The notes under the pieces: generated by a model
What the model was told of the DNA's origin: nothing
Database searches by the model: none
What the model saw: only the letters and a program-made list of their open reading frames with translations
From: Escherichia phage vB_EcoM_EC001
Strand: one strand, 5' to 3'
Length of the DNA stretch: 64,000 bases
Sequence record: MN445185.1
Part shown: piece by piece, positions 16,806-58,652 of the stretch
How the letters are laid out: each line of letters opens with the position of its first letter
How positions within the stretch are numbered: the first letter of the stretch is position 1
Made by a program: the position numbers and the translations under genes

Positions 16806-18659
16806 ATGGTAAAAATCGTTGACTCTAACAACAACGCTCAGCAGAACAACACTCAGACTCAAGACACCGCACCACTGGGCGGTCTGGGCAACGAGACTGT
16901 AAAAGTGCAAACTGCTGTGCCGGGTACTTCTACTGTCAGCCAATTCGATAACGCATTTGGCATCCGCAACATCAGCACCTATGCAATGCACTTCACCAAC
17001 CTCCTGGATGAGCTGAAGAAAAGCAACGAATACCTCAACGCATTCCGCTGGGGCACCATCGTCGGCGTGGGTAACGAAATGGGTTCCGCGGCGTATGTCG
17101 CAGGCCAATGGCAGGGCCACTGGCTGTATGGTATCATCTTCTTTGAACGCGGTCAGTCTCTGCGTCTGAAAGAAACTACCAACAACGGCCAGGAAGACTA
17201 CTACACCATCACTGAACTGTTCAACAAAGACGTGCTGGCAGTAGTACAGAAAAACATCATGGAAGCGCATGGTCTGACCAATGCGAACTTCATGATCATC
17301 AACTCCGTACCAGACCTGGGTAAAGTTCTGGATGCTGAGTGGGCACGTACACTGATGGGTCAGATGATGATGGGCATCTTCGGTCGTATCGCAGGCTACC
17401 TGGGTACGCTGAACCTGCGTAAGCATGACCGTTATCAGGCCGCAGTAATGCCGCTGGAAGATGGTGCGGTTGTTGATGCTAACGGCCACGCACAGCGTGC
17501 TGATTTCGCAATCACCGTTGAGCACAGCCCAAGCAACGTAACCGATGCCACTCCGACTCTGCTGGACACCAATCAGGTACAGGTGTATCCGCGTGTATCC
17601 GGTACCGGTTTCGTCAATATGCGTTTCACCGGTCAGAAGCCTGTCGTTAACGGCGTCTACGACCTGAAACAGCTGCAGGCTGAAATCGTAGTAAGTCTGA
17701 TCGATTCTCAAACTGAAGGTGCAATGGCACCGTATGAACGTCAACTGCTGCTGCTGGCTGCATTTGCAGAAATCGCGGCAATCGGTGGCTGGCGTGACCT
17801 GTTTGTGAAACGTCTGAACAAACAAGATCGCAAGTTCTCCCGTGTGGCAGAATACCTGTCCTGGGGTGCTGACGCTCGTCCTGATGTATCCAAAATCGAC
17901 GGTAGCCGTGAAGCTATCGAAGGTTGCCTGGATATGTTCGCACCGCGTGAAGCAGCACTGGTAGTTAGCCATCGTGCCGGTAACGGCCTGGGTGGTCTGT
18001 CTACTTTGCTGTCTGAAATTGCGGTCGGTTACGACAACTCTCTGAAACAGCTGCTCGCTATTCTGAATTCCATGTCCCCGCGTGATCAGAACGGCGAAGT
18101 TGTTGCAGCGACCAGCTTCACTGCAGTATTTGCTTCTGCACTGAAAGCACAGCTGGGCGATGCCTTCAATGGTACCATCCATTGCAGCCACATCGTGAAA
18201 GCAGCCGTACCGACTGTTTCCGGTGTTTACACCGGTACTGCACAGAAACGTAGCTTCCAGGATATGGACCTGATTTCCGTTGTTACCAAACTGGGTGATA
18301 ACGCGAACGACGTCTATAGCTACCTGAACGCACAGTCCTACAGCCACCGTGAACTGAACGAGCGTCAACAGCGTATCTACATGCTGAAACTGGCCGCTTC
18401 TCTGTTCGCATCCAAAGCACCGCAAGCTACCGGTGAATCTCTGGATATGGCTATCAACCCGATCTTCGGTAAATGCCTGCTGGACTTCGTCCGTAACAAC
18501 TGCACCTGGTCTATGACTGGTGTAAATGCCTACAACACGATGGCGACCTCTCTGTTCTTCAACAACGGTGGGGAAGACTTCACGCTGTCTGGCAACGGCC
18601 TGTCTGCAAGCGGTTCCGATTTCGGTCTGGGCGTGACTCTGAGCAACTTCAAACTGTAA
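16806..18659 (+). CDS. abundant protein with host-like codon bias; candidate phage-nucleus shell protein (chimallin-like), function unconfirmed
   Basis: 617-aa ORF with strong preference for ctg/ccg/ggt/cgt/aac codons, two promoter-like motifs upstream, TAAGGAA RBS, low-complexity N-terminal tail, immediately upstream of the RNAP beta-prime N-terminal gene. Confidence is for the CDS, not the function. Confidence 0.7.
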   Translation: MVKIVDSNNNAQQNNTQTQDTAPLGGLGNETVKVQTAVPGTSTVSQFDNAFGIRNISTYAMHFTNLLDELKKSNEYLNAFRWGTIVGVGNEMGSAAYVAGQWQGHWLYGIIFFERGQSLRLKETTNNGQEDYYTITELFNKDVLAVVQKNIMEAHGLTNANFMIINSVPDLGKVLDAEWARTLMGQMMMGIFGRIAGYLGTLNLRKHDRYQAAVMPLEDGAVVDANGHAQRADFAITVEHSPSNVTDATPTLLDTNQVQVYPRVSGTGFVNMRFTGQKPVVNGVYDLKQLQAEIVVSLIDSQTEGAMAPYERQLLLLAAFAEIAAIGGWRDLFVKRLNKQDRKFSRVAEYLSWGADARPDVSKIDGSREAIEGCLDMFAPREAALVVSHRAGNGLGGLSTLLSEIAVGYDNSLKQLLAILNSMSPRDQNGEVVAATSFTAVFASALKAQLGDAFNGTIHCSHIVKAAVPTVSGVYTGTAQKRSFQDMDLISVVTKLGDNANDVYSYLNAQSYSHRELNERQQRIYMLKLAASLFASKAPQATGESLDMAINPIFGKCLLDFVRNNCTWSMTGVNAYNTMATSLFFNNGGEDFTLSGNGLSASGSDFGLGVTLSNFKL

Positions 18660-18687
18660 TCGAATCGGTTACTGAGTAGTTAGGAAA

Positions 18688-18727
18688 CGGACGGGGGCTA
18701 ACGCCTCCGTCCTTCCCTCTTTTTTTG
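18688..18727 (+). terminator. intrinsic terminator (ggacgggggctaacgcctccgtcc plus T-run)
   Basis: GC-rich hairpin followed by T-run after 16806..18659. Confidence 0.55.
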
Positions 18728-18741
18728 TTGAGGTTGACAGT

Positions 18742-20076
18742 GTGAGAAAGGTACCAAAATTCTACGGAATATCCGGCCGGTTGGTTAGTCAGGATAACTA
18801 TTTGTCCGATTTGCAAATAGAAGCTGCTGCCAAAGGTATTAAACCACCCACTATTATTAACGATGTCGCCGTTAACGGGGATGCGATCGAGGTTGCTGAA
18901 CTTATCGATCGCATGGTACAGAACAGAATCGTTGACGAAGAACTGAACTCTGCACCGATTTGTAGTTTGGATTGTCCGGCACCGATCGCGCATCGTTACA
19001 ATCTCGGTTGTAAGTGTCCGACGTGTGGCTATGTTGTAACTGAACATCGAATTGAATCCGATGTCTGGTTACGTGCACCTGATGAAATGGGTAACTTCGT
19101 CAACCCACGATTCTGGGCAATGTTCAATGCTTTCTTTAATAGCAAGTTGAAGAAGTTTGAACGTAACAAGGTCACTATCGAACGCGGTAATGACTTGATG
19201 ATGTGGATGATTGACCCGTATTACCGTATAGAAGAACCAGACGGTAAACGCGCACATGCTGTGAAACGTGTATTGGAAGAACATGGTTTCGTTCGTGGCT
19301 TGCGCAATCTGGTTGATAACCACGTTAGTATCTTTAACATCCTTACCACGCCAGAAGCCTGGAAGGAAATCTTCGCACCTAATCGGCATAACGCCGCTGA
19401 AGGTGAACGCTTACGTTTACAATGGAAGGAGCTATTCGAAACGCAACGACACGCATTCTTCCCAAGACACTTACCGCTAATCTCCTCTAAACTTATCGTT
19501 ACTGAGGAAGGTCGTCGTGGTGTCATGGTAGACCCAGTGTTCACGGGTGCTATTGATGCGGTGAAAAATATCGCGTTGCTCTATACGCGGCGTAAAGCGA
19601 TCGAACCACGTTTTCTGATTAGTCGTGCTTTGAAAGCGAACCGTCAGTTAACGTACTTCCACATGGACTTCCGTCGTGAGTCTATGGAAGGTAAACCGGG
19701 TGACTATCGTGCGAAATTGGGTTCTACCCACATCCCGTTCGGTGGTCGTGCAACCATCTCACCTATCTCAGAACCACATGATGCCTGGAAGTTAAAAGCA
19801 CCATGGCGTTGGATGGTTGGGTTGATGTCGACCCACATCGAGAACAAACTGCTACGACGCGGTTATTCGTCACGGCAGTGTGAACGTATCGTTGCGAAAG
19901 CGGCAATGCAGTATGACCCGCTTGTAGATGAAATCTTTAAAGAACTGATTCGTGAATCCCCAGGCGGTCTTGGGATCATGGTCATACCGCTACGTAACCC
20001 AACGCTGGTACAGTTGTCTATTCAAACGCTGTACATCGATGAAGTTGTTACCGATGTTAACCAGTGTTCGCTGCGT
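18742..20076 (+). CDS. multisubunit RNA polymerase beta-prime-like subunit, N-terminal fragment, exon 1 (3-prime boundary approximate)
   Basis: GTG start. Zinc-ribbon CSLDCPAPIAHRYNLGCKCPTCG; LRNPTLVQLSIQ...CSL resembles RQPTLHRLGIQ...HPLVC just upstream of the catalytic loop. ORF continues 58 codons into the intron to stop at 20250. Confidence 0.65.
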
Positions 20077-20453
20077 ATCTCTGACCGTGTGATCAAGATG
20101 GCTAACGGTTCGAAAAGAGCCCCATCGGACGGGAAACCTCTGATGCGTATTCTCCTGAAATGCTGGGAAACCCTAAAGCGTATCTACCAGAAATGGGGAC
20201 GAAAGTCTGAAACAACAGATACGATGGCCTACGCTAAACAATACTGCTAACGGTTGTGATAATGGGTAATCAGCAGCGAAGCCTCGTGAGAGGAACGTTC
20301 AACGACTATCGCTGAAATGCGAGTAGGGGTCCCAGTGGACTTCGAAGTGGGAGAACACCTAAGGCGATAGCTATGGTGAAGATATAGTCTGTGCCTTATC
20401 GAGAGATAAGGAGGGTGTCTTAGCACACCTGCTGTATACGGAAACGGTATACG
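20077..20453 (+). ncRNA. group I self-splicing intron (no internal ORF), boundaries +/- about 10 nt
   Basis: Conserved core elements R (GTTCAACGACTA, 20297..20308) and S (AAGATATAGTC, 20379..20389) with complementary gacta/tagtc. Frame changes between flanking coding segments; beta-prime homology stops at CSLR and resumes at DKQDFDGDQ. Confidence 0.75.
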
Positions 20454-20693
20454 GTGGACAAACAGGATTTCGATGGCGACCAGTTCCAGGTACGTTTACC
20501 AGTCGATGAAACTGAGATGAAGTTGGCGCTCCAATTCCGTCCAGATAACGGCTTTATGTCTTCTACTGATGTGGACCGCGTAGAACACGGCATGGTTTTA
20601 CATAACGAGCTAATCAGTATGCAGAACCAGTTCCTTATTGAAGCAGATGAGGATGATGAAGAAGGCATTCCGTTGGAAGCGGTGATGGGCTAA
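20454..20693 (+). CDS. RNA polymerase beta-prime-like N-terminal fragment, exon 2 (catalytic DFDGDQ loop)
   Basis: Begins VDKQDFDGDQFQVRLPVDETEMKLA, matching [23 protein letters not shown]; ends 79 codons later. Confidence 0.65.
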   Translation: MDKQDFDGDQFQVRLPVDETEMKLALQFRPDNGFMSSTDVDRVEHGMVLHNELISMQNQFLIEADEDDEEGIPLEAVMG

Positions 20694-20706
20694 TAGGAGT
20701 ATTGTA

Positions 20707-21288: not shown

Positions 21289-21295
21289 AAAAGAT

Positions 21296-21318
21296 GGGGC
21301 TTCGGCCCCTCTTTTTTT
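21296..21318 (+). terminator. intrinsic terminator (ggggcttcggcccc plus T-run)
   Basis: Hairpin plus T-run. Confidence 0.6.
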
Positions 21319-21370
21319 CTTCACTGGGGGCTGTATGCAGCATCCTACCTTGAATTTGACAGGAGCTAAC

Positions 21371-24396: not shown

Positions 24397-24461
24397 GTTA
24401 AAATTTACGTTAGTGGGACATCATGTGTGAACCACTAGACTGCTTTTCCGAAAAGGATGAA

Positions 24462-25115
24462 ATGATGATTAACCAAGAAATTTTCAAAGACAAATGGCTT
24501 TACCCGCAGACCGAACCGGATCAGCAAAACCGTACGCGTAAACTCAACATCGAACCGAATGATTTCAACGGTGATGTTGAAACTATGAAGTTTAGCTACT
24601 CCTTTGGTAAGGGCGAAGGTCTCTATTTCTCTGCGCCGATTACGGTTTGCCGTACCATTATCGAAGCTCTGCAGGATTGTCTGCGTAAGAGCGAAAAGAG
24701 TATGCTGAAGTTTACTAACGAAAACGGCAACAAACCGCCCGTTAGTCTGATTGTTGGCCGTGAAGACAACCTGGTACCGTTCATCGCTATTGCCGGTGAA
24801 ATCCAGGGCGTTGGTGCCCGCCAGAAGAAGTTCTACTTCTCCTACCCGAAAGGTTTCCGTATTTTCCGCGACGGCCAGCAGGTTTCTGATTTAGAACTTG
24901 CTGAGCGCTGTGCACGTGCGTTTATCACTAACTTCGAGAAGTTCTTACAGAACCTGGAAGAGAAATATAAGCCGCGTGAATTCCAGCAAGGTGGTGGTAG
25001 CTTCGGTCGTGGCGGATACGGCGGTGGCCAGGGTGGCGGTCAGCGTAGCGGCGGTTATCAACAGCAACAATCTGCACCTCCAGCAACCACTGATTCTTAC
25101 GACGAATTCCTCTAA
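24462..25115 (+). CDS. abundant protein with SSB-like C-terminal tail (Gly/Gln-rich linker plus acidic tip); possible ssDNA-binding protein or SSB-tail mimic
   Basis: Host-like codon usage; ends GGGSFGRGGYGGGQGGGQRSGGYQQQQSAPPATTDSYDEFL, resembling the E. coli SSB tail (shared QQSAP, acidic aromatic terminus). Start chosen at ATG after AAGGA; track ORF starts 24423. Confidence 0.5.
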   Translation: MMINQEIFKDKWLYPQTEPDQQNRTRKLNIEPNDFNGDVETMKFSYSFGKGEGLYFSAPITVCRTIIEALQDCLRKSEKSMLKFTNENGNKPPVSLIVGREDNLVPFIAIAGEIQGVGARQKKFYFSYPKGFRIFRDGQQVSDLELAERCARAFITNFEKFLQNLEEKYKPREFQQGGGSFGRGGYGGGQGGGQRSGGYQQQQSAPPATTDSYDEFL

Positions 25116-25200
25116 GAAACAAAATAAAAAATACGCCCAAGGGAAACCTTGGGCTATTAACGCTTATGCGTGGTCCTGCAACACACACTGTAAGAAGATT

Positions 25201-25221: not shown

Positions 25222-25250
25222 CAATCGACTATTCGCGGAGTTCAACTATA

Positions 25251-34794: not shown

Positions 34795-37539
34795 ATGGTA
34801 GAAATTCAAATGACTTACACGAGTATGGGGGTACGGGTTGAAGTCCCTATCCGCCAGGCTGAAAGGGCCATACTCGCGTGGGCCGAAGAGAATATGCACG
34901 CCCCAAAGATGGGCAAGCAACATGGACGAATAACTACGGAACGCGGTGACGCGTACTACGCCCACATTCCGTCTTTAAGGACGTTCATTTTCCATAAAGT
35001 GTTCGCTGAGAAGATTAAACATATCCTCCAACGAGCAGCAATTGAATATGCTTTTCAGTACAAGCTTACAGAGCACCATCCTGAGCGAGGAACACCTTAC
35101 TGCTGTACATTTGATAACTACGGCTTCTCGATGGTAGAAAGCGATCCGGAGTCGCGTTTCTACTATCAGAACGAGGTTGTGGATGCAGCGTCCGATCCAA
35201 ACCGACCACAGACAATCTTTGCCATTCAGACAGGGAGAGGAAAATGCTGTGCTCATGGTACGCGTGTGCGTGTACCGGGTGGTTGGAAGAACATTGAGGA
35301 TATACAGCTAGGTGATTACGTTACGGGGCGTGACGGAAAACCAGCAATGGTCTCTGGAGTGTTCCCACAGGGTGTGGTTGACCTGTATCAGGTGACGTTT
35401 TGGGATGGTAGGAGTGTTGACGTATGTGGCGAGCACTTGTGGCAAAGCTACTACGTTAATACCACCGAGAATCGTCGCTGGGGTGTACGTGATACCCTAG
35501 AGATGAAACGTTTAATTTCGATGCCTAATCCACGGGTATACATCCCATTACCAGAACCAGAGGAAATGCCAGCTAAGGATTTTGTCATTCATCCGTATTT
35601 ACTCGGTATCCTCTTGGGTGATGGCTCCCTATCGATGCCTGGTGTTTTATACACCAAAGGCGATGTGGAGATTCGTGACCGTGTTGCTGAGGTCATGCCC
35701 GCTGGACATGCAATCCATGATTCATCGTACAGCGATGGGATAACGAAGTGCATCTCTTGTCCCGGCGGTGTTAACCTTGTCCGCAGAGAGCTTGAGCGGT
35801 TAGGGTTAATTGGCTGCAGGTCTTGGGAAAAGTTCATACCTGGAGATTACTTCGAAACGTCCATCGAACAACGGTGGGAGTTGTTGCGTGGCTTGATGGA
35901 TACTGACGGTACTGTGGATAAGGATGGTGGTACGCCTTCTTTCTGTTCCACCAGTAAAGAATTGGCTTTAGGTGTTCAGGAACTTGTGCGGTCTTTAGGA
36001 GGGATTGCAACACTACGCGAGAAACGTCCGTTCTTCACACACAACGGCGAACGTCGTGAAGGTCGTTTGGCTTATAACGTCTCCATCCGCCACAAAACAC
36101 CATCGAAACTGTTCCACCTTCCAAGGAAGAAAGAACTGTGTCGTGATAACGGACAATACACCGATATACTGAAACTCCGTGTTAAGTCTATCGAACCCAT
36201 TGGTCGTGATCTTGCCACGTGTATTCGTGTCGAGAACGACGATGCGTTGTTTGTGGTGGACAAGTGGATCGTTACGCACAACACCAAGACCTGTATGAAG
36301 TCGATGGTTAAACGGGGAACCCGTACCGCATTGATTCACCGTCCGTCGTACGTTCCCAAATGGCTGTTTGACGTCTGTGATGATGAAACAGGACTTCGTA
36401 TACTTCGTGACGAGGTGTTAGTTTGTACAGGCGTACAGGCGATTTACGACGCGCTGGAGATGGGTAAGTCGGGAGAGCTAGATAGTCGTGGTATTAAGGT
36501 AATAATCCTCCCCACGGTCTCTCTACAGCGTTTCCTGAAGGAGTACATTAACACTGCTGCGACTAACCCTGTGGACCTGGATACGTTTTATGATGTTCTG
36601 GGTGTGGGTCTGGTGGCGATGGATGAGGTGCACGAGCATTTTCACCTCGTTTACATGGCTGGTATAATGTTGAACCCTCCGGCATCGATAGAGATGTCTG
36701 CAACCCTTAAGCCGGGTAGCAGTAAAGCCTTTATCGCGGAGCGGTATTTAGAACGTTTCCCAATGGAGTACCGAATCAGTATTCCAATCATTCCGGTGGT
36801 TGACGTGAAGGCGTTGTACTATCGACTGGATGATAAGAAGTTTGCGTGGTGGGCGTCGAAGATGACGCCGTATAACCACAAGCTCTTCGAAGGGAAGCTG
36901 ATTAAAGAGAACTTGCATTTAGAATACGCGAACATGATCTGGGATGTGGTTGAGAAATCGTTCCTTAAACGGTATCAACCTGGCCAAAAATGTTTGATAC
37001 TCTTTGCTACGGTAGCGATGTGTGAGTTCTTTACCGAGTATGTGAAAGATAAGTTATCGCGTGACCCTGTATTCCATCCGTTGATGGTGGCGAAATATAA
37101 TGCAGGCGATTCGTATGACGACTTTATCCAAGCAGACTTCTCTATCTCCACACCGGGGAAAGCGGGGACTGCGGTCGATAAACCTGGGTTGGTACACATG
37201 TACATTTCAACCCCGGTAGAAGACCAGCAACTGAACGAACAGATGGCCGGTCGTCCACGTAAGATTCTCCACAACGAATGGGGTGAAATAGACCCAACGG
37301 TGTGGTTATTCCATGCGTATAACGTACCGAAGCATTGCAATTACCTGAATGCCCGCCAGAAATCACTCAAGGATGTCGTATTGTCGTTCCGTATCGCGAC
37401 ATCCCCCTACGTTGTAAGGAAATCACATGCTCACTCCGCCGCGTCCAGCAGAGCCGCTGCCACCCTACATCGGAATGACTTTAGCAAGTTTTCTCGAAAA
37501 CGTTCTAAAGGCGTATCCCGGCGTAGAAGACGTCGCTAA
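34795..37539 (+). CDS. SF2 (DExH-box) helicase interrupted by an intein in the Walker A motif; 3-prime end uncertain
   Basis: Start at ATG with GAGGGG RBS (track ORF 34738). Extein motifs: P-loop GRGK-[intein]-TKT, DEVHEH, SAT, QMAGRPRK. Basic C-terminal tail overlaps the next ORF. Confidence 0.65.
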   Translation: MVEIQMTYTSMGVRVEVPIRQAERAILAWAEENMHAPKMGKQHGRITTERGDAYYAHIPSLRTFIFHKVFAEKIKHILQRAAIEYAFQYKLTEHHPERGTPYCCTFDNYGFSMVESDPESRFYYQNEVVDAASDPNRPQTIFAIQTGRGKCCAHGTRVRVPGGWKNIEDIQLGDYVTGRDGKPAMVSGVFPQGVVDLYQVTFWDGRSVDVCGEHLWQSYYVNTTENRRWGVRDTLEMKRLISMPNPRVYIPLPEPEEMPAKDFVIHPYLLGILLGDGSLSMPGVLYTKGDVEIRDRVAEVMPAGHAIHDSSYSDGITKCISCPGGVNLVRRELERLGLIGCRSWEKFIPGDYFETSIEQRWELLRGLMDTDGTVDKDGGTPSFCSTSKELALGVQELVRSLGGIATLREKRPFFTHNGERREGRLAYNVSIRHKTPSKLFHLPRKKELCRDNGQYTDILKLRVKSIEPIGRDLATCIRVENDDALFVVDKWIVTHNTKTCMKSMVKRGTRTALIHRPSYVPKWLFDVCDDETGLRILRDEVLVCTGVQAIYDALEMGKSGELDSRGIKVIILPTVSLQRFLKEYINTAATNPVDLDTFYDVLGVGLVAMDEVHEHFHLVYMAGIMLNPPASIEMSATLKPGSSKAFIAERYLERFPMEYRISIPIIPVVDVKALYYRLDDKKFAWWASKMTPYNHKLFEGKLIKENLHLEYANMIWDVVEKSFLKRYQPGQKCLILFATVAMCEFFTEYVKDKLSRDPVFHPLMVAKYNAGDSYDDFIQADFSISTPGKAGTAVDKPGLVHMYISTPVEDQQLNEQMAGRPRKILHNEWGEIDPTVWLFHAYNVPKHCNYLNARQKSLKDVVLSFRIATSPYVVRKSHAHSAASSRAAATLHRNDFSKFSRKRSKGVSRRRRRR
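35245..36282 (+). mobile_element. intein (346 aa) with double-motif LAGLIDADG homing endonuclease
   Basis: Begins CCAHGTRVRVPGG...IEDIQLGDYV directly after P-loop GK; contains LLGILLGDGSL and LRGLMDTDGTV; ends VVDKWIVTHN followed by Thr. Predicted spliced P-loop is GRGKTKT. Confidence 0.7.
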
Positions 37540-37870: not shown

Positions 37871-38491
37871 ATGAGTCGTCGCAAAAAGAAACCCGCTTAT
37901 AACCCACGTAAAGACGCCCGCGATTTCGTCAAGGCGATGATGCAGTCTGTGTTGAAAAAACAAGCTGTGTTTATCGAAAGTACCGAATTCCTGTCAGGCA
38001 GAATTGATCGGGAGCGTGAAGTAACTGAAGCCATTACGCACGAAGAGCTGAAAGCCTTTACGTTGAAAGCGCTGGATGAAGCACAGGCGGCTTTCCTTGG
38101 CATGTGTCAGCAAGGCAAAGAGCTGTTCGGTAAACTGATTGTTGAGGCAGATGCTAAGGCTGTGCCGGTGTTTGACATGCTGAACGATAACAGCAAAACG
38201 TGGAAAGAAATCAAAGACCAGTTCCACGTCGACCACACCGAACTGTCCCTGATTGACCAGCGGGCAAACATGCTTGCGATGGATATTCAGGGCACCAGTA
38301 TCGAAATCTTCTCCACGTATAACGCGAAAGTGAAGTTCGTGAAGCAGGCGCTGAATAACGGGCATACCGTGGAACAAGCCGAAGTTCTGTTGGCTGAAGC
38401 TCTGGCTAATAATTCGAAGGAACTCCCTAAAAACGCCATCGTCGATCACAACGACGTTGTAGTAGAAACCGAGGAAGCGGCACATGTCTGA
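37871..38491 (+). CDS. hypothetical protein
   Basis: Internal ATG (MSRRKKKPAYN) of track ORF 37829..38491 with AAAGGA RBS. Confidence 0.55.
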   Translation: MSRRKKKPAYNPRKDARDFVKAMMQSVLKKQAVFIESTEFLSGRIDREREVTEAITHEELKAFTLKALDEAQAAFLGMCQQGKELFGKLIVEADAKAVPVFDMLNDNSKTWKEIKDQFHVDHTELSLIDQRANMLAMDIQGTSIEIFSTYNAKVKFVKQALNNGHTVEQAEVLLAEALANNSKELPKNAIVDHNDVVVETEEAAHV

Positions 38492-40454
38492 GATCCAAGA
38501 TCAGCGTCCGGGTAATGCCCGTCGCCCTAATCCCGACCAGCCAGCCCCTGTGGCGGCTGCTACCCAACAAGAGATGATTCTTCCGACCGTGCCTGATGAC
38601 GCGACCTCGGATGCAATCATCATGGCTATTAAACAAGCCAATCCCGATTTTTCTTTTGCCCGTGCAGAAGAAGTTTATCACCAACACTATCATCGTCCGG
38701 AGCCTAAGCTTGAGCGTCCGACGTTTGTAGAAGAGGCGTTGCCTGAACCTGCTGCACCTGTACCACCGGCACCTCAGACTTTTGCTGAACAGGTGCAGGA
38801 GCACCTACATCGTGCCCCGGAACCGGTAGTAGAGAAAGCGCCTACGGTAGAACCTGCTCCGCAGCCAAAAGCTCCGGAAGCGGTTGCACCGGCACAGCCG
38901 GCTGTAAAAGAAATGGAAGATGCAGCACCGAAGGTTCCGGAACAACAACAGATGCGTGAGATTGACTTCGGTAATACCCATTTAGCTGAAACCGCCGAAA
39001 TGGGTGAAGATGAAGCCGATCGTATTCTGACACAGTCGAAGATGTTGATTGGTCTGAAACAAGACCCTAACATCATTGCAGACTCCCTGCAAAAGTTCCT
39101 CGGTAATATTAAACGTTCACCGAAAGACGGCCGGCTGCTATTCGAAAGCCCTGAACAGCAACAGGTTTACGACGACATCTATCGTGCTTTGAACATGACC
39201 CCGCCACGTCTACAGGACGGCGTACCGGCATTCGCGGGTGCACTGGACCGTGGTGATACCGCTTGGGAACAGCGTGTGATGTTGCCGGACGGCAAGGCAT
39301 CTGGTGCTATTGCACCGCGTGACAATATGCACACTGGCGCGCTGGCTGCCTTACGTCGTGTACGTAAGTCGGGTATTCCGAACATGGTTTGGTTGCCGGC
39401 CACAGGTATCTACGTGGGCTTCCGCGCACCGCACGAACGTGACCTTTGTGACTTCGACATGCGTCTAACGCTGGAAACTGCGACCATCGGTATGCAGACC
39501 TACGGATTGATGCTGTCGTCGTCTTCTGGCGTGTACATGCGCCACATGGTTGAATTCGCACTTCAGTTTGTTACCGAAGCAACCATCGATTGTGCGGGTA
39601 ACGATCTGCGTACGGTGCTGTTGGATACCATTGATCTGGCTGACTACTGGCTGGTTATTCTGGGTCCGTTGCAGGCGAAGTGGCCGTCTGGTATTCCATG
39701 GACGCTGATGTGTGGCGAAGACGGTTGCAACCAGCAGGAAGATGTGAAGCTGAACATCGCGCGTTGTATCCGTTTCGGTTCCGGACTGTTTAGCGACCTG
39801 CAGAAACAACTGTGGGCACGTCAACGCGGTACTGAGCGTCCAGTGATTTCTATTGCAGAACAGCGCGAATATATCGCGGCGCATCAGGTTGATCCGTCCT
39901 CGGTATTTGAATACCACGACGTGCGTGTTGAATTTGGCCGTTCCACCCTGGGTAGCTTCTTTGACTCCACCGAGAAGTGGATTGAAGACGTTAACGCGTC
40001 AACTACGGCAGCGCTGTCTGAATTTGCTACCGAGCGTGAACGTGAATCCCATATGCGTTTAACTGCGGAAGCCCGTCGCTTAACGCGTTACGCTCACATG
40101 GTGAAGTCTATCACTGTTAATGAGCAACGTGAAGTAAACGGTGAAATGCAGGTTATCCCACAAACTGAAACCGACACAGCGAAAATCGTTGAGATGCTGG
40201 AAGAGCTGTCTTCCGACCGTATCTACGTTGGTCAGTTTGAAAACGCGATTGCTGAATACAACGAACGTACACGTTTAGCGGTATTCGGTTACATGGGTAA
40301 ACGCTGCCCGGCGTGTGGTAAAACACACGGCGAGAAAGACGGTCTGTATCGCGGTATTGTTACCATCAGTCCGGACAGGGTTTTTTTCGTGCTCTCTCGA
40401 GTGGTGTCCGAGATTCAGAAATTCTTGCTGGATCAATACGCCGATATTGGCTAG
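38484..40454 (+). CDS. hypothetical protein with proline-rich PAPE-repeat N-terminal region and single CxxC near the C-terminus
   Basis: 656-aa ORF, host-like codon usage; low-complexity Pro/Ala/Glu-rich N-terminal segment (about residues 80-140) with repeated PAP/PEP units; later CPACGKTHG. Confidence 0.6.
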   Translation: MSEIQDQRPGNARRPNPDQPAPVAAATQQEMILPTVPDDATSDAIIMAIKQANPDFSFARAEEVYHQHYHRPEPKLERPTFVEEALPEPAAPVPPAPQTFAEQVQEHLHRAPEPVVEKAPTVEPAPQPKAPEAVAPAQPAVKEMEDAAPKVPEQQQMREIDFGNTHLAETAEMGEDEADRILTQSKMLIGLKQDPNIIADSLQKFLGNIKRSPKDGRLLFESPEQQQVYDDIYRALNMTPPRLQDGVPAFAGALDRGDTAWEQRVMLPDGKASGAIAPRDNMHTGALAALRRVRKSGIPNMVWLPATGIYVGFRAPHERDLCDFDMRLTLETATIGMQTYGLMLSSSSGVYMRHMVEFALQFVTEATIDCAGNDLRTVLLDTIDLADYWLVILGPLQAKWPSGIPWTLMCGEDGCNQQEDVKLNIARCIRFGSGLFSDLQKQLWARQRGTERPVISIAEQREYIAAHQVDPSSVFEYHDVRVEFGRSTLGSFFDSTEKWIEDVNASTTAALSEFATERERESHMRLTAEARRLTRYAHMVKSITVNEQREVNGEMQVIPQTETDTAKIVEMLEELSSDRIYVGQFENAIAEYNERTRLAVFGYMGKRCPACGKTHGEKDGLYRGIVTISPDRVFFVLSRVVSEIQKFLLDQYADIG

Positions 40455-41808: not shown

Positions 41809-43090
41809 CTATCTGGTCGCTGCGTGTAAAGCAGAAGCTTGGCGTAGACTGGTGTGGCGTATTGCGGTTTTCAACGTGGCAATCTTTAATGAAAAAGGTG
41901 AGCCACCTGAGCAATACGACCTGAACTATATTGACGGCTTGCCCCACTACTGGGAAAACGAAGAAATTAAATGGGTGCCGATTGAAGGGTGCAAAAAAGA
42001 TGAAGAGCTGTTCGTGCCAGAAGAGCAGTTTGAATTGCGTCCTGAGATGTACCCAGGTTTAGCTGGTCCCATTCCGACTACCGTGGGTCGCTATGTCTTT
42101 AACTGGATTGCTATCTATTACGCTTTCGGTACCCGTCTCCCGTATCTGGCAGAGTCTCGTGACCCACTAGCCTACCGTAAAGAGATGTATGAGCGTTGTG
42201 TGGAATATGATGACAGCGATCCAGACAACGAAGACGCGATTCGACCGTACATGATAGGACGCTTTGTAGGGGGTCTACACGAGCTTGCTCCGTTGTGTCG
42301 TGGGATTGCCCCAACAGGAACTATTAGAAGCCTTACAACGCATCCTGACGCGTATAAGGTACGAGATGCGTTGCTGTTGAAGCACAAAGACGAACTGGAT
42401 AACCCTGCGGTTATCGTTATGATTGAAAAAGCTCTCGATGAACTTGATAAAGAGTGGTTGAGTGGCGACCAGTCCGTTGAGTTCTACAGCTCTCCTAAAG
42501 CGCGTATGCGTCGCCGTAAGCTGATGCTGATGTACGGTATTCAGACCGCTTTTAAAGAAGGTGCAGATTTTACCTTAATCCCAACGAGCCTGATGGAAGT
42601 TGATCAGACCGGGATGAAGTATCTGGTAGAGAAATTCAATGATACGCGAGAAGGTTCCTTCATGCGTGGTGCAGAAACTGCCAAGGGCGGGGAGCAAGTA
42701 CGTATCATCCAGATGATCTTCCAGAACCACAAAATCGTGCCTGGTGATTGCGGGACAAAACTGACACATGCAGTTGTAATTAACCAGTATAACTACAAGC
42801 GTTATGTTGGCATGAACGCGATGGTTAACGGTAAAGTTACCCAACTCACCGAAGAGTATTTGAAAACGCAATTTGGTAAAGTTGTTCGACTCCGCCGACC
42901 CATCTTATGTCAGCAAGGTCACGTAGACTGTTGTGCGGCGTGCTCCTCTGCACACAAAGCAGAAGAGCCACGGGCAATCGCTGCGGATATCTCTTCCGGC
43001 TTCTCGAACGTTATGACCACTGCAATGGGTGCGATGCACGGTCGTGAAACCGTGGTTAAAGAGTACATCCCTAAATTCCACATCACCTAA
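41792..43090 (+). CDS. hypothetical protein
   Basis: 432-aa ORF overlapping previous gene end. Confidence 0.55.
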   Translation: MMNKIDYLVAACKAEAWRRLVWRIAVFNVAIFNEKGEPPEQYDLNYIDGLPHYWENEEIKWVPIEGCKKDEELFVPEEQFELRPEMYPGLAGPIPTTVGRYVFNWIAIYYAFGTRLPYLAESRDPLAYRKEMYERCVEYDDSDPDNEDAIRPYMIGRFVGGLHELAPLCRGIAPTGTIRSLTTHPDAYKVRDALLLKHKDELDNPAVIVMIEKALDELDKEWLSGDQSVEFYSSPKARMRRRKLMLMYGIQTAFKEGADFTLIPTSLMEVDQTGMKYLVEKFNDTREGSFMRGAETAKGGEQVRIIQMIFQNHKIVPGDCGTKLTHAVVINQYNYKRYVGMNAMVNGKVTQLTEEYLKTQFGKVVRLRRPILCQQGHVDCCAACSSAHKAEEPRAIAADISSGFSNVMTTAMGAMHGRETVVKEYIPKFHIT

Positions 43091-43103
43091 GGATTGTTTC
43101 CTC

Positions 43104-43604
43104 ATGACTAAGAAAGACACTACTACCCTTGACCCGCGTACAGAAGGCGTGGTCCGTGATAGCGCTTCTTACAGCAACGACGACCAATATCGTGTTAAAC
43201 TGATCACCACGATGCTCGATGAAGCAGGTAACAATGCCGGTCCACGCAAAGCATCTGGTACCCAGGCTGAGAAAGATGCGTATAATAAGCTGCATCACTC
43301 TTTCCGTGAGCTGTTTAAACTGCGCGGTCAGGCCTTCCTGGACGGTTTCTACGCCTTCGTAGAAGCGGCTAATAAGCATCGTAACGGTATTTTCTACGCA
43401 CCGGCTGCTAATAACCGTATCAGTGAGAACTTCCCGAATCGCGACGAGCGTGAAGTCTTCGTTATCTTTATTAACATGCTGATTCGTTACGCACGTTGCG
43501 CCGACAAAGGCCGTTTCCGTGATACCAACGATGTTGACCGTCTGGCTCGTCGCTTGAACGACCCGGACCTGCGTTCGCTGGTTATGCACGCCTTTGGCGG
43601 TTAA
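43104..43604 (+). CDS. hypothetical protein (host-like codon usage)
   Basis: Internal ATG (MTKKDTTT) of track ORF 43029..43604 with AAGGA RBS; 166 aa. Confidence 0.6.
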   Translation: MTKKDTTTLDPRTEGVVRDSASYSNDDQYRVKLITTMLDEAGNNAGPRKASGTQAEKDAYNKLHHSFRELFKLRGQAFLDGFYAFVEAANKHRNGIFYAPAANNRISENFPNRDEREVFVIFINMLIRYARCADKGRFRDTNDVDRLARRLNDPDLRSLVMHAFGG

Positions 43605-43613: not shown

Positions 43614-43650
43614 CCTCTCTACCCTAGGGTAGAGAGGCCTTTCTTTTTTT
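43614..43650. terminator. bidirectional intrinsic terminator (cctctctaccctagggtagagagg flanked by A-run and T-run)
   Basis: Between convergent genes 43104..43604 (+) and 43654..45438 (-). Confidence 0.55.
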
Positions 43651-43653
43651 GTT

Positions 43654-46876: not shown

Positions 46877-47320
46877 ATGACGCATAAAGTTTCTTTAAAT
46901 AACCTGGTACTGGATTTCAAACGTACCAACGAAGGGAAAGGTGTACACGCCCAGCGTGCTTTGACCGGCCTGGTTGCTTTCTCACTGGCGTATAACGCGG
47001 TACTGGCTGATAATGGTCAATATGGCGCTGCAGAGGCCGCTGGGACGTTTTTACGTCCGGTAATGCGTAATATCGTCTCTGACGTTAACGAGCTGTACTG
47101 TGTTGATTTGGGCGTGATTGAGGACATGACCGTGGGTCTGTACTGCAATCGTTACTGCAACGTGTATGGCGGCGCTAAAGCTCTGGAAAGTTTCTCAGTT
47201 CGTGAGATTTTCAACCAGGCACTCGGGGAAGATATCTGGGAAACCGTTGGTCTGTGGATTAGCCGCTTTATGGAAGTGGTTGGTTTCTACATGGCAGAAC
47301 TGAAAGGGCAAATTTCATGA
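46877..47320 (+). CDS. hypothetical protein
   Basis: 147-aa ORF; stop overlaps next start. Confidence 0.5.
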   Translation: MTHKVSLNNLVLDFKRTNEGKGVHAQRALTGLVAFSLAYNAVLADNGQYGAAEAAGTFLRPVMRNIVSDVNELYCVDLGVIEDMTVGLYCNRYCNVYGGAKALESFSVREIFNQALGEDIWETVGLWISRFMEVVGFYMAELKGQIS

Positions 47321-49050: not shown

Positions 49051-49057
49051 AATAAAA

Positions 49058-49096
49058 GGCTACCCTCTCCTTCGGGAGAGGGTAGTGCTTTTTTTA
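49058..49096. terminator. bidirectional intrinsic terminator (ggctaccctctccttcgggagagggtag plus T-run)
   Basis: Between convergent genes 47317..49050 (+) and 49094..52054 (-). Confidence 0.55.
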
Positions 49097-53316: not shown

Positions 53317-53338
53317 TAACTCCGGAGTTTAGTTAAAA

Positions 53339-54457
53339 ATGGCAGAAAAAACATTTGAGACATCGCTCGTCTCCTTTCTTTCTAAGTTTCCCATGCTGCT
53401 TCGCCAGCGGGCGGAATCGACGGAAGAATTCAACTCTGTGCTGTACAACGAGCACACCACGCTGGTTGAACAAAGTCTGTTGGGCTTAGATTACCTGCCA
53501 GGTATTCTGGAGAAAATCCAAATCCTGCTCGCGGGCAACCAACTTACCGCCATCTCAATTCTGGTAGGTGTTCCTGAGGTTGATATCCTTGGTACGCTTG
53601 ACCAGGTTAGCACCCGTCGTAATGCCCTCGATGCGGCTGCACGTTCGGGTTCTCGCTTAGCGTCTTTCGCAATCGGCGAGTCCTCCCGTCACACGCTGCC
53701 GTCATACGATAAAATCGGGCTTGCGGTCGGTGAATCCCGTCGCCAGAAATCCGATAACAAAGTAGCGACTGAATCATCCGCAGGTTCTGTGCTGCCGAAC
53801 AACACGCTGAAGCTCCTGCACGATCAGGAAGGTCTGTCCAACGGTAAAGTGTTCTCTGTTACCTTCGAACGCGACGGTAATAAAGTCGAGCTGCCGATGC
53901 GTCTGCGTCTTGATGTGAAGTCTCTGCCAACCGATGAAATGAAGACGCTGATTGCGTTCAGCGATCAAACCAAAACCTTCTGGGAACGTGTGCTGCGGGC
54001 GAAGGTCGGTTCTCTCAGCTACGCGAAAGATATCGCGCTGTGTAATGACCTCATTGAAGAATACCGTAAGAACCGCTTCCGTGATAAGTCCGGTTATTAC
54101 CGTAAGATGATGGAAAAGAAAAACGCCAACTGGCTGTCTGGCCTGCTGACGCTGAGCCCATCCATCAACAACGCGTCTTCGGTTATGGTGGTTTCTCAAG
54201 AAACTATCGACGATCTGACTGCTCAGCTGGGCGGAGACTTCGATGATTACAATATCCGCCAGCGTGTGTTCAAAGACACCCTGACTGTTTACTACGTGGT
54301 TGTCGACCAGACCTGGAACCGTGTAACCATTTATACGCGTGGTCAGACCGGGTCTCAGGAACTCGACAAATCAGACTTTAGCAAGGCGAAGTCCGGTAGC
54401 GGCGATGTAAACAAAATCATCGATGCCTATCGCGTCGGCGCGAATCCGGTACTGTAA
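53339..54457 (+). CDS. hypothetical protein (host-like codon usage)
   Basis: 372-aa ORF biased to ctg/ccg/cgt codons. Confidence 0.65.
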   Translation: MAEKTFETSLVSFLSKFPMLLRQRAESTEEFNSVLYNEHTTLVEQSLLGLDYLPGILEKIQILLAGNQLTAISILVGVPEVDILGTLDQVSTRRNALDAAARSGSRLASFAIGESSRHTLPSYDKIGLAVGESRRQKSDNKVATESSAGSVLPNNTLKLLHDQEGLSNGKVFSVTFERDGNKVELPMRLRLDVKSLPTDEMKTLIAFSDQTKTFWERVLRAKVGSLSYAKDIALCNDLIEEYRKNRFRDKSGYYRKMMEKKNANWLSGLLTLSPSINNASSVMVVSQETIDDLTAQLGGDFDDYNIRQRVFKDTLTVYYVVVDQTWNRVTIYTRGQTGSQELDKSDFSKAKSGSGDVNKIIDAYRVGANPVL

Positions 54458-54467
54458 GGGGAAAAGA

Positions 54468-55400: not shown

Positions 55401-55423
55401 GACCGTATTATCAGGAGAGTCTC

Positions 55424-55981: not shown

Positions 55982-56037
55982 GGGGGCCCCTTATCTAGGG
56001 GCGTGTAATTGGGTTATAACCAAAGGAACCGAAACAA

Positions 56038-57315
56038 ATGGCAAACTTTGTAAAAAGTAAACTCGCCCGCGAGTCCGTTGAAGCTACCGGCGACGTAATC
56101 GACGGTCTGAGCAACGTTGAACCGGCAGAAGAGAACATCGACGTTCAGCTGGCAGAAGTTGCGTCTATCGACGGTCAGCTGGAACAGCTCGATGGTGACC
56201 AGGAAACCCTGGCTGCTGATACCGAGCGTACCGAAGCTGCTATCGACGCTGCTGACGAAAAAATCGAAAACGGTGAAGAGATGCCTGAAGAAGCCATCGC
56301 TCACACCGAAGTGGCGCAGGAATCTATCCGTAAGCGTTGGGCTATCGATCGTACCAAACTGGCACGCGAATCTTATCGCCGCGGCCGTGGCATGACCAAA
56401 GCAGCTCAGGAAGGCTGGAAAGAAACCCTGAAAGATCTGTTCAAGCGCTTCGTTGAACTGTGTAAAGCAGTTATCGCGAAAGCGAAAGAGCTGAAGCTGA
56501 AATACATCAACGTTGGTAAGTCTGCACAGAAACGTGCGAAAGCTTACCAAGAGATGCTGCGTAAGCTCGGTAAGCAGAAGAAAGAAAACATCTCTGGCGG
56601 CTTTATTAGCAAACTGTCTATCGAAGGCGACTTCGATGTGGCCAACTCCATCGCTATCGCGAAAGAGCTGACCGGCGGTAAAGCGAAAGATGCTATCAAC
56701 AAGCTGTCCTCTCAGGCGGCTGACTCTGCCGTAGCGATCACCAAAACTGCAGAAGGTACTGCAACGGCTGCTAAAGGCGCCGTTGATGTTGCCCTGTTCG
56801 GTACCGCTGCTAAGAAACTGCGCACCCTGCCGCAGTTCGAAGATGGCGAAGGCGGTCAGAAAGTTCTGGCACTGCCAGGCAACGCCTATGTGCAGATCGG
56901 TAGCAAAACTCTGGCCGGCGGCCAGGAGTACACTGCGGTGGCGTTCCTGTCAACTGGCGACTCTACCGACACGAAAGAGATTGCTACCCCGGCAATTACC
57001 GCACTGGCGTCTGCAGCAACCGCTCTTGATGCGATCGGTAAAGGTTTCGAGAAAGTGCTGCAGGACTTCCGCTCCTATGACGCCGAAGTTGAGAAACTGG
57101 AGCAGGCTGCTAGCAAAGCTGCTGCTGCCCTGGATAAATCCAACGACGAAGGCGAGTGGGAAGCACTGCGTAATGCACGTACTGCAGCCGACCAGGCTGT
57201 GCGTAACTACCAGACTCTGAACCGTGCCGTGGCGCATGTTGGTAACACTGTTATCAGCGGCCTGAACGGTTACATCGGTGCTGGTATCGGCGCGTACGAA
57301 AAGTCTAAAGCTTAA
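56038..57315 (+). CDS. abundant paralog A with acidic N-terminal propeptide-like region; possibly virion or internal protein
   Basis: 425-aa ORF, host-like codon usage; first 15 aa identical to 57393..58652; shared VAQESIRKRW and C-terminal GLNGYIGAGIGAYEKSKA. Confidence 0.7.
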   Translation: MANFVKSKLARESVEATGDVIDGLSNVEPAEENIDVQLAEVASIDGQLEQLDGDQETLAADTERTEAAIDAADEKIENGEEMPEEAIAHTEVAQESIRKRWAIDRTKLARESYRRGRGMTKAAQEGWKETLKDLFKRFVELCKAVIAKAKELKLKYINVGKSAQKRAKAYQEMLRKLGKQKKENISGGFISKLSIEGDFDVANSIAIAKELTGGKAKDAINKLSSQAADSAVAITKTAEGTATAAKGAVDVALFGTAAKKLRTLPQFEDGEGGQKVLALPGNAYVQIGSKTLAGGQEYTAVAFLSTGDSTDTKEIATPAITALASAATALDAIGKGFEKVLQDFRSYDAEVEKLEQAASKAAAALDKSNDEGEWEALRNARTAADQAVRNYQTLNRAVAHVGNTVISGLNGYIGAGIGAYEKSKA

Positions 57316-57392
57316 TCCGCTTTACGTACCAAACGTCGGTTGACAAATCATTAATGGCGGTACACGGCGTACCGCCTAGAGGATAGAAAAAG

Positions 57393-58652
57393 ATGGCAAA
57401 CTTTGTAAAAAGTAAACTCGCTCGTGAATCTGTCGAAGGCGCAGGCACTGTCGTTCCAGATGGTATCGAGCTGCCGGCTGAGTCCGTGGAAGGTACTCTG
57501 GCTGACATCGAGCATGACACCAAACCGATCGACCAGCTGGACGCAGAAGCAGACGTGCTGGCAGAAGACGGTGACGAAACTGATGCACAGCTGGATGCAG
57601 TTGATGCTGCTGAAGCTGCCGCTGACGGTGAAGGTGAAGATGGCGAAGAGCCAATGGAAGTGGAAGAAGATATGCCTGACGATGCTGCTGAGCAGCTGGA
57701 CGTTGCGCAGGAATCTATCCGTAAACGTTGGGCATTCGACCACCGCGTAAGCGTTGCGCAGGAATCTTACGGTGCACGTAAGCGTCGTCAGGTTGCTCGT
57801 GAAAGCCTGTGGGAAGATATCAAAGCCTTCCTGAAGCGCATCTACGAGTGGCTGAAAGAGCAGGGCCGTAAAATCAAAGATCGCTGGCTCAAGTTCAGCA
57901 ACCAGGGTAAATCCATTCAGGCGCGTGCTAAGAAATATGACGCTGCGCTGTCTGGCCTGGGCAAGCAGAAGAAAGACACCGTTTCCGGTGGCTTCATCAA
58001 GAACCTGACCTCTAACGGCAAGTTCCTGGGTGACAACCTGCAGGTGCTGAAAGAGCTGCTGGCTAACATCGGTGGCGTTTACAGCATGCAAGAAGACGTC
58101 GTTCGTGAAGCAACTGTAATGGTAACTTCTATTGAGTCTGGCAAACACGTTGGCGGTTTCGCTGCAGCGGTTAATAAAGCAGTTTCTGGTAAGTCCGGCG
58201 ATCTGCAGCTGCTGGGCAACCAGATCGGTAAAGCTGACGTTAAAGTCAACGGTGACGACCTGGAAGCATCCTTCACTGTTATCGATGCAGAAGGCAGCGT
58301 AGAGCAGTCCGTAGCGACTCCTTCTCTGACCACCCTGAGTGGTCTGGTGGCGTTCTTCAATCAGCTGGGTAAAGCTGTGGAAGAAAACGTGAAAGCGTAC
58401 CACAAGAACAACCAGGCGCAAGAGAAGTACGAGCAGGCTATTGACAAGCTGCTGAAGCGTATCGACAGCGTGAAGATCGACGACAACGCCGAGCTGACCA
58501 ACAACGTACGTGTTGCTCGCCGTGCTATCACCATCGCGAACCAGTTCGTTTCCTGGACCGAACGTTGCGTTGCAACTGGCCAGAAAAACCTGATCGCCGG
58601 TGTTAACGGCTACATCAGCGCCGGTATCGGTGCTTATGAAAAGGCTAAGTAA
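57393..58652 (+). CDS. abundant paralog B (tandem duplicate of 56038..57315)
   Basis: 419-aa ORF; same N-terminus, AQE motifs and C-terminal GVNGYISAGIGAYEKAK; followed by terminator. Confidence 0.7.
   Translation: MANFVKSKLARESVEGAGTVVPDGIELPAESVEGTLADIEHDTKPIDQLDAEADVLAEDGDETDAQLDAVDAAEAAADGEGEDGEEPMEVEEDMPDDAAEQLDVAQESIRKRWAFDHRVSVAQESYGARKRRQVARESLWEDIKAFLKRIYEWLKEQGRKIKDRWLKFSNQGKSIQARAKKYDAALSGLGKQKKDTVSGGFIKNLTSNGKFLGDNLQVLKELLANIGGVYSMQEDVVREATVMVTSIESGKHVGGFAAAVNKAVSGKSGDLQLLGNQIGKADVKVNGDDLEASFTVIDAEGSVEQSVATPSLTTLSGLVAFFNQLGKAVEENVKAYHKNNQAQEKYEQAIDKLLKRIDSVKIDDNAELTNNVRVARRAITIANQFVSWTERCVATGQKNLIAGVNGYISAGIGAYEKAK

Follow-up and report, generated by a model that had tools for sequence, protein, structure and literature searches.

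Seven genes in the first 64 kb of the genome of Escherichia phage vB_EcoM_EC001 (sequence record MN445185.1; these 64,000 nucleotides, analysed as a whole, are called the window below) were found to prefer the synonymous codons of highly expressed enterobacterial genes, and this preference is very probably the result of translational selection on a phage that relies on the tRNA pool of its host. By the codon adaptation index (CAI), these seven genes rank 1, 2, 3, 4, 5, 7 and 9 among the 66 genes of the window. Their products include a homologue of the phage-nucleus shell protein chimallin (ChmA), a putative ChmC-like protein and two internal head proteins. A preliminary description of the window had singled out the same genes (the listed genes) as rich in CTG, CCG, CGT, GGT and AAC codons, and had regarded this preference as a mark of high-abundance products and as the reason for long antisense open reading frames (ORFs) opposite them. 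The listed genes, together with two genes of comparable rank that had been overlooked (58795–59550 and 46877–47320), are the following, where each SPN3US counterpart is numbered according to GenBank JN641803:

16806–18659, + strand: ChmA (chimallin, phage-nucleus shell protein) homologue, as predicted from its fold; SPN3US gp22 (RefSeq gp244); CAI 0.728; zero TTA, CTA or TCA codons
24465–25115, + strand: putative ChmC-like protein, SPN3US gp29 homologue; predicted Whirly/PUR-fold domain, Gly/Gln-rich disordered tail and acidic tip; CAI 0.637
38484–40454, + strand: conserved Chimalliviridae protein, function unknown; homologue of SPN3US gp39, PhiPA3 gp074 and phiKZ gp077; CAI 0.554
43104–43604, + strand: small basic protein, function unknown; SPN3US gp43 homologue; CAI 0.656; zero TTA, CTA or TCA codons; strong hairpin after the gene (43614–43637)
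53339–54457, + strand: head protein cut by the prohead protease; SPN3US gp50 homologue; CAI 0.532, the lowest of the listed genes
56038–57315, + strand: phiKZ-type internal head (ejection) protein; SPN3US gp53 homologue; PF12699, E = 5 x 10−77; CAI 0.738
57393–58652, + strand: phiKZ-type internal head (ejection) protein; SPN3US gp54 homologue; PF12699, E = 5 x 10−54; CAI 0.744, the highest of the window; terminator-like hairpin after the gene (58663–58688)
58795–59550, + strand: SPN3US gp55 homologue, function unknown; CAI 0.591, rank 6 of 66
46877–47320, + strand: head protein, SPN3US gp46 homologue; CAI 0.539, rank 8, borderline, with a wide bootstrap interval

Codon adaptation and protein abundance

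A megablast search placed the window among SPN3US-like jumbo phages, of the genus Seoulvirus and the nucleus-forming family Chimalliviridae. It is collinear, with zero indels, with positions 1–64000 of Escherichia phage vB_EcoM_Lh1B, from which it differs at 1,371 positions, 133 of them N bases in the Lh1B record. All 66 coding sequences (CDS) annotated in Lh1B over this region are intact ORFs in the window, and these constituted the gene set for the CAI ranking. For the gp29 homologue, the start at 24462 given in the preliminary description corresponds to the SPN3US-style ATG; the Lh1B start lies one codon downstream, at 24465. A single tRNA gene, for tRNA-Trp, is encoded in the window, which implies that the phage mRNAs are read with host tRNAs.

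CAI was calculated against 31 E. coli K-12 genes (5,222 codons), comprising the ribosomal-protein genes of the S10, spc, alpha and str operons plus rpoA, tufA and fusA. Measured in this way, which is the check that had been proposed for the two groups, the listed genes differed from all other genes (median CAI 0.393; Mann-Whitney p = 9 x 10−9) and also from the 27 other genes located within 16806–58652 (p = 3.7 x 10−7). On the same scale, ordinary E. coli genes from the same locus scored 0.33–0.46 and ribosomal-protein genes 0.65–0.84. The top three phage genes (0.73–0.74) fall within the latter range, and are thus as well adapted as the ribosomal-protein genes of the host.

All five codons named in the preliminary description were commoner in the listed genes than in the others, with pooled fractions of 0.74 against 0.33 for CTG, 0.58 against 0.38 for CCG, 0.74 against 0.53 for CGT, 0.59 against 0.46 for GGT and 0.80 against 0.69 for AAC. 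Further codons favoured in the listed genes were TCT, TCC, ACC, ACT, ATC, GTT, GCT, TTC, TAC and CAG, and the G-ending codons TCG, ACG, CGG, GGG and TTG were avoided. The shift in codon fractions between the listed genes and the others followed the relative adaptiveness (w) of the codons in E. coli (rho = 0.74, p = 2 x 10−11). The same ordering emerged from a principal component analysis of relative synonymous codon usage, carried out without any host reference: its first axis accounted for 25% of the variance and correlated with CAI (rho = 0.94), the listed genes lay at its extreme, and its largest positive loadings were those of CTG, CGT, CCG, TCT, GGT, ACC, ATC and AAC. Both the ranks and this ordering support that the subset is real.

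The codon bias is codon-specific and not compositional, as it involves no shift in GC content. The preliminary description had presented the remaining genes as more AT-rich in third positions, but GC content at third positions (GC3) did not differ significantly between listed genes and others (0.549 and 0.521, respectively; p = 0.07 in the window and p = 0.27 within the 16806–58652 region), and T at third positions (T3) was even a little more frequent in the listed genes, a consequence of the many preferred codons with a final T (CGT, GGT, TCT, ACT, GTT and GCT). The same description spoke of two codon-usage classes, of which the biased subset stood and the discrete split did not. The Bayesian information criterion favoured one Gaussian for log-CAI, whether the genes of the window or the full set of 264 SPN3US genes were taken, and a two-component fit on the linear scale captured only the right skew of the distribution. 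With three extreme genes at 0.73–0.74 followed by a graded tail, the CAI values are continuous and heavy-tailed at the upper end, and do not fall into two discrete classes.

The relation between codon adaptation and protein amount was examined in SPN3US, for which the whole genome was assembled and CAI was obtained for 264 genes; abundance was taken as the spectral count per kDa (SC/M) reported for 86 virion proteins (PMC5694885). The SPN3US ranking by CAI was headed by the major capsid protein gp75 (0.778), followed by gp53 (0.751), gp22 (0.731), gp172 and, in fifth place, gp54; the tail tube protein gp255 ranked 9th, gp141 11th and the tail sheath protein gp256 18th of 264. The three highest SC/M values in the virion are those of the major capsid protein (22.6), gp53 (21.0) and gp54 (20.2), and more than 600 copies each of gp53 and gp54 have been estimated per capsid (PMC5694885). 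Over the 86 proteins, CAI correlated with SC/M (Spearman 0.42, p = 5 x 10−5; Pearson 0.63 on log abundance), and the correlation was still significant with the top 3 or 7 proteins removed, so that the comparison with proteomic abundance that had also been proposed gave a positive outcome. Outside the virion, gp22 has been described as "abundant in infected cells" and reaches a level like that of the major capsid protein in prohead preparations, although it is absent from virions (PMC7552025, PMC7411985), and the non-structural proteins found in greatest abundance in PhiPA3 and 201phi2-1 include the ChmC homologues. The view that the biased genes specify high-abundance products therefore holds for gp53, gp54, gp22 and the ChmC homologues, with gp50 reaching mid abundance only. 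A diverged orthologue has kept the bias as well: in the one examined, the ChmA gene of phage Asesino (64% amino acid identity), CAI is 0.723, compared to 0.42 and 0.39 for its neighbours.

Antisense reading frames opposite the biased genes

Long ORFs were detected on the opposite strand of the biased genes, in the antisense frame whose codons are aligned with those of the sense gene. Their explanation by codon preference, as advanced in the preliminary description, was upheld by their frame and by simulation. These shadow ORFs are the following:

16695–18425, − strand: 576 aa, codon-aligned, opposite the ChmA gene; non-coding
57351–58421, − strand: 356 aa, codon-aligned, opposite the gp54 homologue; non-coding
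56014–56550, − strand: 178 aa, codon-aligned, opposite the gp53 homologue
43083–43589, − strand: 168 aa, codon-aligned, opposite the gp43 homologue
58918–59406, − strand: 162 aa, codon-aligned, opposite the gp55 homologue
53774–54199, − strand: 141 aa, codon-aligned, opposite the gp50 homologue
39465–39917, − strand: 150 aa, codon-aligned, opposite the gp39 homologue; of unexceptional length (simulation P = 0.30)

Among antisense ORFs of at least 100 aa, 21 out of 31 occupied the codon-aligned frame. As TTA, CTA and TCA are the reverse complements of TAA, TAG and TGA, stops in this frame can arise only from these three sense codons, and where they are rare, as in the most biased genes, the aligned antisense frame is left without stops and long non-coding ORFs result. 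The three codons are absent from the genes at 16806, 43104 and 57393, opposite which the aligned frame is open over the whole gene (618, 167 and 420 codons, respectively), and occur once in the gene at 56038. In agreement with this, the higher the CAI, the fewer were the stops per unit length of the aligned antisense frame (rho = −0.72, p = 2 x 10−8), and the correlation was not significant in the other two antisense frames.

In a resynthesis simulation, the same proteins were re-encoded with the codon usage of either the other genes or the pooled listed genes. Under the usage of the other genes, open runs averaged about 110 codons, and the 618, 420 and 304 codons observed for the genes at 16806, 57393 and 56038 were never reached (P < 0.004). 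With the usage of the listed genes, the observed open runs were ordinary for most genes (P = 0.06–0.95). A fully open frame opposite the gene at 16806 appeared in 1% of these latter runs, because the bias of this gene exceeds that of the pooled usage.

Comparison with Lh1B showed that the shadow ORFs are non-coding, with no purifying selection on the antisense frame. Within the listed genes, the codons that differ between the window and Lh1B were divided into 185 synonymous and 91 nonsynonymous when read in the sense frame, and into 30 and 246, respectively, when read in the aligned antisense frame. For the gp54 homologue the corresponding figures were 79 and 47 in sense and 10 and 116 in antisense, and in the ChmA gene 13 of the 16 changed codons altered the antisense amino acid, compared to 6 of 16 for the sense one. 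Shadow ORFs produced by biased codon usage are a known artefact for gene finders. Those of the window share with the known ones the aligned frame, the rarity of TTA, CTA and TCA, the location of the longest examples opposite the most biased genes and the lack of conservation as protein, and none of them differs from the known kind, the 576-aa ORF opposite ChmA being an extreme case. The antisense ORFs of 576 and 356 aa should consequently stay unannotated as genes.

Probable translational selection and its alternatives

Under translational selection, the genes of the products in highest demand would have accumulated the synonymous codons of highly expressed E. coli and Salmonella genes (CTG, CGT, CCG, GGT, TCT, ACC, ATC and AAC). 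Such products would be ChmA, the ChmC-like putative RNA-binding protein and the two internal head proteins, as well as the major capsid and tail tube proteins encoded outside the window. The strength of the bias would be graded with the amount of protein, from which a continuum with a heavy upper tail is expected rather than two classes, and a side effect would be the near disappearance of the disfavoured TTA, CTA and TCA from the most biased genes, giving rise to the shadow ORFs. Translational selection is known in E. coli and Salmonella, for genes of high expression, and in their virulent phages, whose structural genes show host-adapted codon usage, within the CAI framework of Sharp and Li. 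The phage analysed here resembles these cases in its preferred codons, which are those of ribosomal-protein genes, in a bias that is graded with expression and independent of GC3, and in that adaptation is highest for proteins made in many copies, structural ones included. Nothing in it is different in kind; its particularities are that transcription takes place inside a protein nucleus, apart from translation, and that, among non-structural genes, the signal is strongest for that of the nuclear-shell protein itself. Among the results listed by a literature search, none had a title or abstract on per-gene codon adaptation in jumbo phages.

An origin of the difference in composition or mutation rather than expression, either through regional GC content or through a mosaic genome with genes transferred from enterobacteria, could be invoked from the peaks of GC content (about 0.53) around 38–40 kb and 56–58 kb, where some of the listed genes are located, and from the patchy divergence from Lh1B, which peaks in the gp39 and gp54 homologues and suggests recombination. 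However, GC3 is alike in both groups, the preferred codons include the six T-ending ones and the avoided codons are the five G-ending ones enumerated above, and the bias is kept in the Asesino ChmA orthologue. Regarding transfer, the biased genes are core phage genes, and their detected homologues come nearly all from phage genomes or metagenomic contigs, so this explanation is largely refuted and must be considered very improbable. A slightly better case, although still a poor one, can be made for temporal class, in which codon usage would differ between early genes, which the virion RNA polymerase transcribes, and late genes, which the non-virion enzyme transcribes, and would track a changing tRNA pool instead of protein abundance. 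Head proteins expected to be late (gp50, gp53, gp54 and the major capsid protein) are enriched among the high-CAI genes, and the median CAI is 0.417 for virion compared to 0.397 for non-virion proteins (p = 0.002). Against it, the ChmA and ChmC genes are biased as strongly as those of the late head proteins, ChmC has been reported as early-expressed and chimallin expression has been reported to initiate nucleus formation; most virion (late) genes are ordinary in CAI, and among virion proteins CAI still follows copy number. Moreover, the lone tRNA-Trp of the window cannot re-shape codon preferences. As the biased genes include shell proteins made before head assembly in addition to head proteins, timing alone is not the explanation.

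The causal order could also be the reverse if the antisense ORFs were real overlapping genes, whose need for an open frame would drive the avoidance of TTA, CTA and TCA and with it a part of the codon bias. The frames open over the whole length of the genes at 16806, 43104 and 57393, and the unusual length of the 576- and 356-aa ORFs, are what such genes would produce. Codon usage alone, however, reproduces the open frames quantitatively, and the ratio of synonymous to nonsynonymous changes (30:246 in antisense, 185:91 in sense) excludes antisense genes. In addition, the bias extends to codons unrelated to antisense stops (CGT, GGT, ATC, ACC and AAC), and the sense products are abundant proteins that have been detected experimentally. 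The probability of this alternative is close to nil.

Translational selection is thus the preferred explanation, and the following points weigh against it. The CAI reference was that of E. coli and not of Salmonella. The abundance test covered virion proteins plus gp22 and ChmC. In the SPN3US virion, gp50 is of mid abundance (SC/M of 2.19; PMC5694885) though its homologue is one of the listed genes, and gp160 reaches an SC/M of 9.46 with a CAI of only 0.506; the existence of such abundant proteins with moderate adaptation accounts for the moderate overall correlation. Shine-Dalgarno strength showed no covariation with CAI (rho = −0.03), and hence an independent sequence sign of higher translation initiation was not found. 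Finally, whereas the match to host codons, the correlation with virion abundance, the identities of the proteins and the frame and lack of coding of the shadow ORFs were observed directly, selection for translation speed or accuracy as the cause of the bias is what we infer, and not a demonstrated causation.

Products of the biased genes and neighbouring features

By its predicted fold, the product of the gene at 16806 is a chimallin homologue. An AlphaFold (AF2) model built from 23 homologues had a predicted local distance difference test score (pLDDT) of 76 and a predicted template modelling score (pTM) of 0.78, and in a Foldseek search of the Protein Data Bank (PDB) its best nine matches were all chimallin/PhuN chains (E = 1 x 10−20 to 2 x 10−15; template modelling (TM) scores of 0.59–0.71), the next match appearing at E = 0.03. 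The identity was seen by fold comparison only, as phmmer found no match among PDB sequences, nor did a profile of the 23 sequences, and no Pfam match was obtained. A precomputed PF25677 tag carried by some homologues was discarded, since hmmscan did not reproduce it. The SPN3US orthologue at the same locus is RefSeq ACQ60_gp244 (YP_009153316.1), listed as a diverged chimallin homologue by Laughlin 2022. The product is also 64% identical to Asesino gp39, whose fusion to GFP forms a ring round the DNA as a nuclear shell and which is a verified ChmA (PMC11724907), and a tetragonal lattice has been seen in SPN3US lysates (PMC7552025). By analogy, the protein would form the shell around replicating phage DNA.

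The model shows the fold of the chimallins of 201phi2-1 (gp105), Goslar (gp189), PhiPA3 (gp53) and Asesino (gp39), and high abundance is shared with the 16806 family. Residues 1–56 and 578–617 are predicted by AF2 to be disordered, which is consistent with the flexible N- and C-terminal tails by which chimallin protomers are joined in the lattice. Immediately downstream of the gene comes that of a non-virion RNA polymerase subunit, an arrangement also found in PhiPA3 and Asesino. The differences are in sequence, which is merely 12–13% identical to that of the solved chimallins and went undetected by the searches above, and in the SPN3US literature, where the chimallin-like gp22 has been treated as a possible scaffold of the head (PMC7411985). 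There is in fact a clash of names at this locus. GenBank SPN3US_0022 (gp22; SPN3US positions 15768–17621) is the same gene as RefSeq ACQ60_gp244, and the gp244 of GenBank is another gene, encoding a 240-aa virion RNA polymerase subunit. The locus carries both labels, so that the "gp22" of the assembly papers and the "gp244" of the nucleus papers are one protein, which reconciles the abundant candidate scaffold with the chimallin homologue of Laughlin et al. as products of the same gene.

The SPN3US gp29 family, annotated as hypothetical everywhere, can now be assigned as ChmC-like, an assignment that is new and that sequence profiles and a structural model make plausible. A profile of the 24465 family aligned with PhiPA3 gp061 (ChmC) in hhalign with 97.5% probability (E = 8 x 10−12), a score partly raised by low-complexity sequence; pairwise BLAST of the product against ChmC was blank (E = 12), and a direct search of PDB sequences gave no match. 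The AF2 model has an overall pLDDT of 81, with residues 1–170 above 90 and residues 174–216 below 50, and its top Foldseek matches were to PUR-alpha repeat I-II, with probabilities of 0.97–0.98 but weak scores (E = 5 x 10−3, TM 0.3–0.45). A linker rich in Gly, Gln and Asn followed by a tip of the form D-x-[FY]-D-[DE]-[FI]-[LIV] is kept in 15 homologues. This Gly-rich linker and acidic tip had raised the possibility of an OB-fold single-stranded DNA-binding protein, which was rejected because the predicted fold is of the Whirly/PUR type and ChmC matches better.

The likeness to ChmC (PhiPA3 gp61, phiKZ gp67, Goslar gp176, 201phi2-1 gp123) includes the Whirly/PUR-like fold with two strand-rich, helix-capped repeats and the published architecture of a disordered C-terminus in which a Gly-rich stretch precedes an acidic tip, and high abundance is a feature of the ChmC homologues. 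The position of the gene is also common to both: in the window as in PhiPA3, the genes run ChmA, RNA polymerase subunit, ..., SbcD, one gene, ChmC. As to differences, homology is seen at the level of profiles only, with a weak fold match, and the linker is Gly/Gln-rich instead of Asn/Gly-rich. RNA binding and association with the nuclear shell, both demonstrated for PhiPA3 ChmC, may by analogy be properties of this product too.

The two internal head proteins were well above the cutoff of 27 bits for PF12699 (260 bits for the product of the gene at 56038 and 184 bits for that at 57393) and belong to PHROG 2497, internal head protein. The homologues of the products of the genes at 38484 and 43104 are outside the 86 SPN3US virion proteins, and direct searches of PDB sequences with these two products gave no match. 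The non-virion high-CAI proteins had no Pfam match, and in PHROGs they matched only families of unknown function; a scan of seven high-CAI proteins against NCBIfam gave no match either. In tblastn searches against annotated phages with the gp22, gp39, gp43, gp29 and gp55 homologues, the labels were nearly all "hypothetical protein", and the literature searched offered no function for the phiKZ gp077/PhiPA3 gp074 family. Matches of the gp55 homologue were to SPN3US-like (Seoulvirus-type) phages plus one Erwinia phage record; this product and that of the gene at 43104 are lineage-restricted. In the part of SPN3US outside the window, a CAI of at least 0.55 was found for gp252, gp235, gp215, gp201, gp172, gp66 and gp136, mostly uncharacterised, of which gp172 is a 7-kDa virion protein and the remaining six are non-virion.

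Divergence from Lh1B is very patchy, with peaks in two of the listed genes. The gp54 homologue (57393–58652) has 165 substitutions, with 47 nonsynonymous changed codons, and the gp39 homologue (38484–40454) has 76, compared to 8–24 in the other high-CAI genes examined. This patchiness is suggestive of recombination, or of rapid evolution in one of the two ejection-protein paralogues with its codon adaptation kept. Strong GC-rich hairpins with T-runs are located directly downstream of several genes (43614–43637, 58663–58688, 49059–49086, 60161–60183 and 25135–25154); terminator-like ones follow three high-CAI genes (ending at 58652, 43604 and 25115), and some are bidirectional, between convergent genes. 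A scan for sigma-70 promoters gave matches at chance level, a result that is irrelevant to a phage with its own RNA polymerases.

Three further features, insertions or possible insertions, were observed elsewhere in the window. A group I catalytic intron (20090–20411, + strand; Rfam RF00028, 69.4 bits over a gathering score of 50, E = 2 x 10−17) splits the gene of an RNA polymerase subunit, homologous to the beta'1 subunit of the Asesino non-virion RNA polymerase (nvRNAP), into what is annotated in Lh1B as two CDS (18742–20250 and 20454–20693); its SPN3US counterpart, gp23, is uninterrupted. A helicase gene (34795–37539, + strand; CAI low, 0.343), which exceeds SPN3US gp36 by 1,038 bp, contains at protein residues ~151–434 an intein-like insertion with Hint (PF05203) and LAGLIDADG homing endonuclease (PF14528, PF05204) domains. 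A gene of 223 aa (14778–15449, + strand), with no Pfam match, is located between the gene of a DNA polymerase subunit and that of the gp21 homologue in a stretch of ~660 bp that is missing from SPN3US, and may be a mobile or accessory insertion.

Translational selection and shadow ORFs are long-known, textbook effects, and the general view of phages is unchanged by their presence here. What the analysis provides in addition is that two of the most biased non-virion genes are identified as those of ChmA and of a ChmC-like protein, as predicted above, and a means of choosing among uncharacterised genes. The CAI ranking picks out the proteins of highest known abundance (the major capsid protein, gp53, gp54, ChmA and ChmC) and can hence serve to prioritise others, whereby the homologues of gp43, gp55 and gp39 become candidates for study in nucleus-forming jumbo phages. 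The abundance of these three products would follow from their codon usage. A bolder proposal, to which we would give somewhat less than an even chance, is that CAI constitutes a cheap and accurate predictor of abundance in this clade, and that the gp43, gp55 and gp39 homologues are unrecognised major components of the infected cell, in amounts like those of ChmA and ChmC. They could then be further nucleus-associated or mRNA-handling factors and, if this were true, SPN3US gp252, gp235, gp215 and gp201 would belong to the same category.

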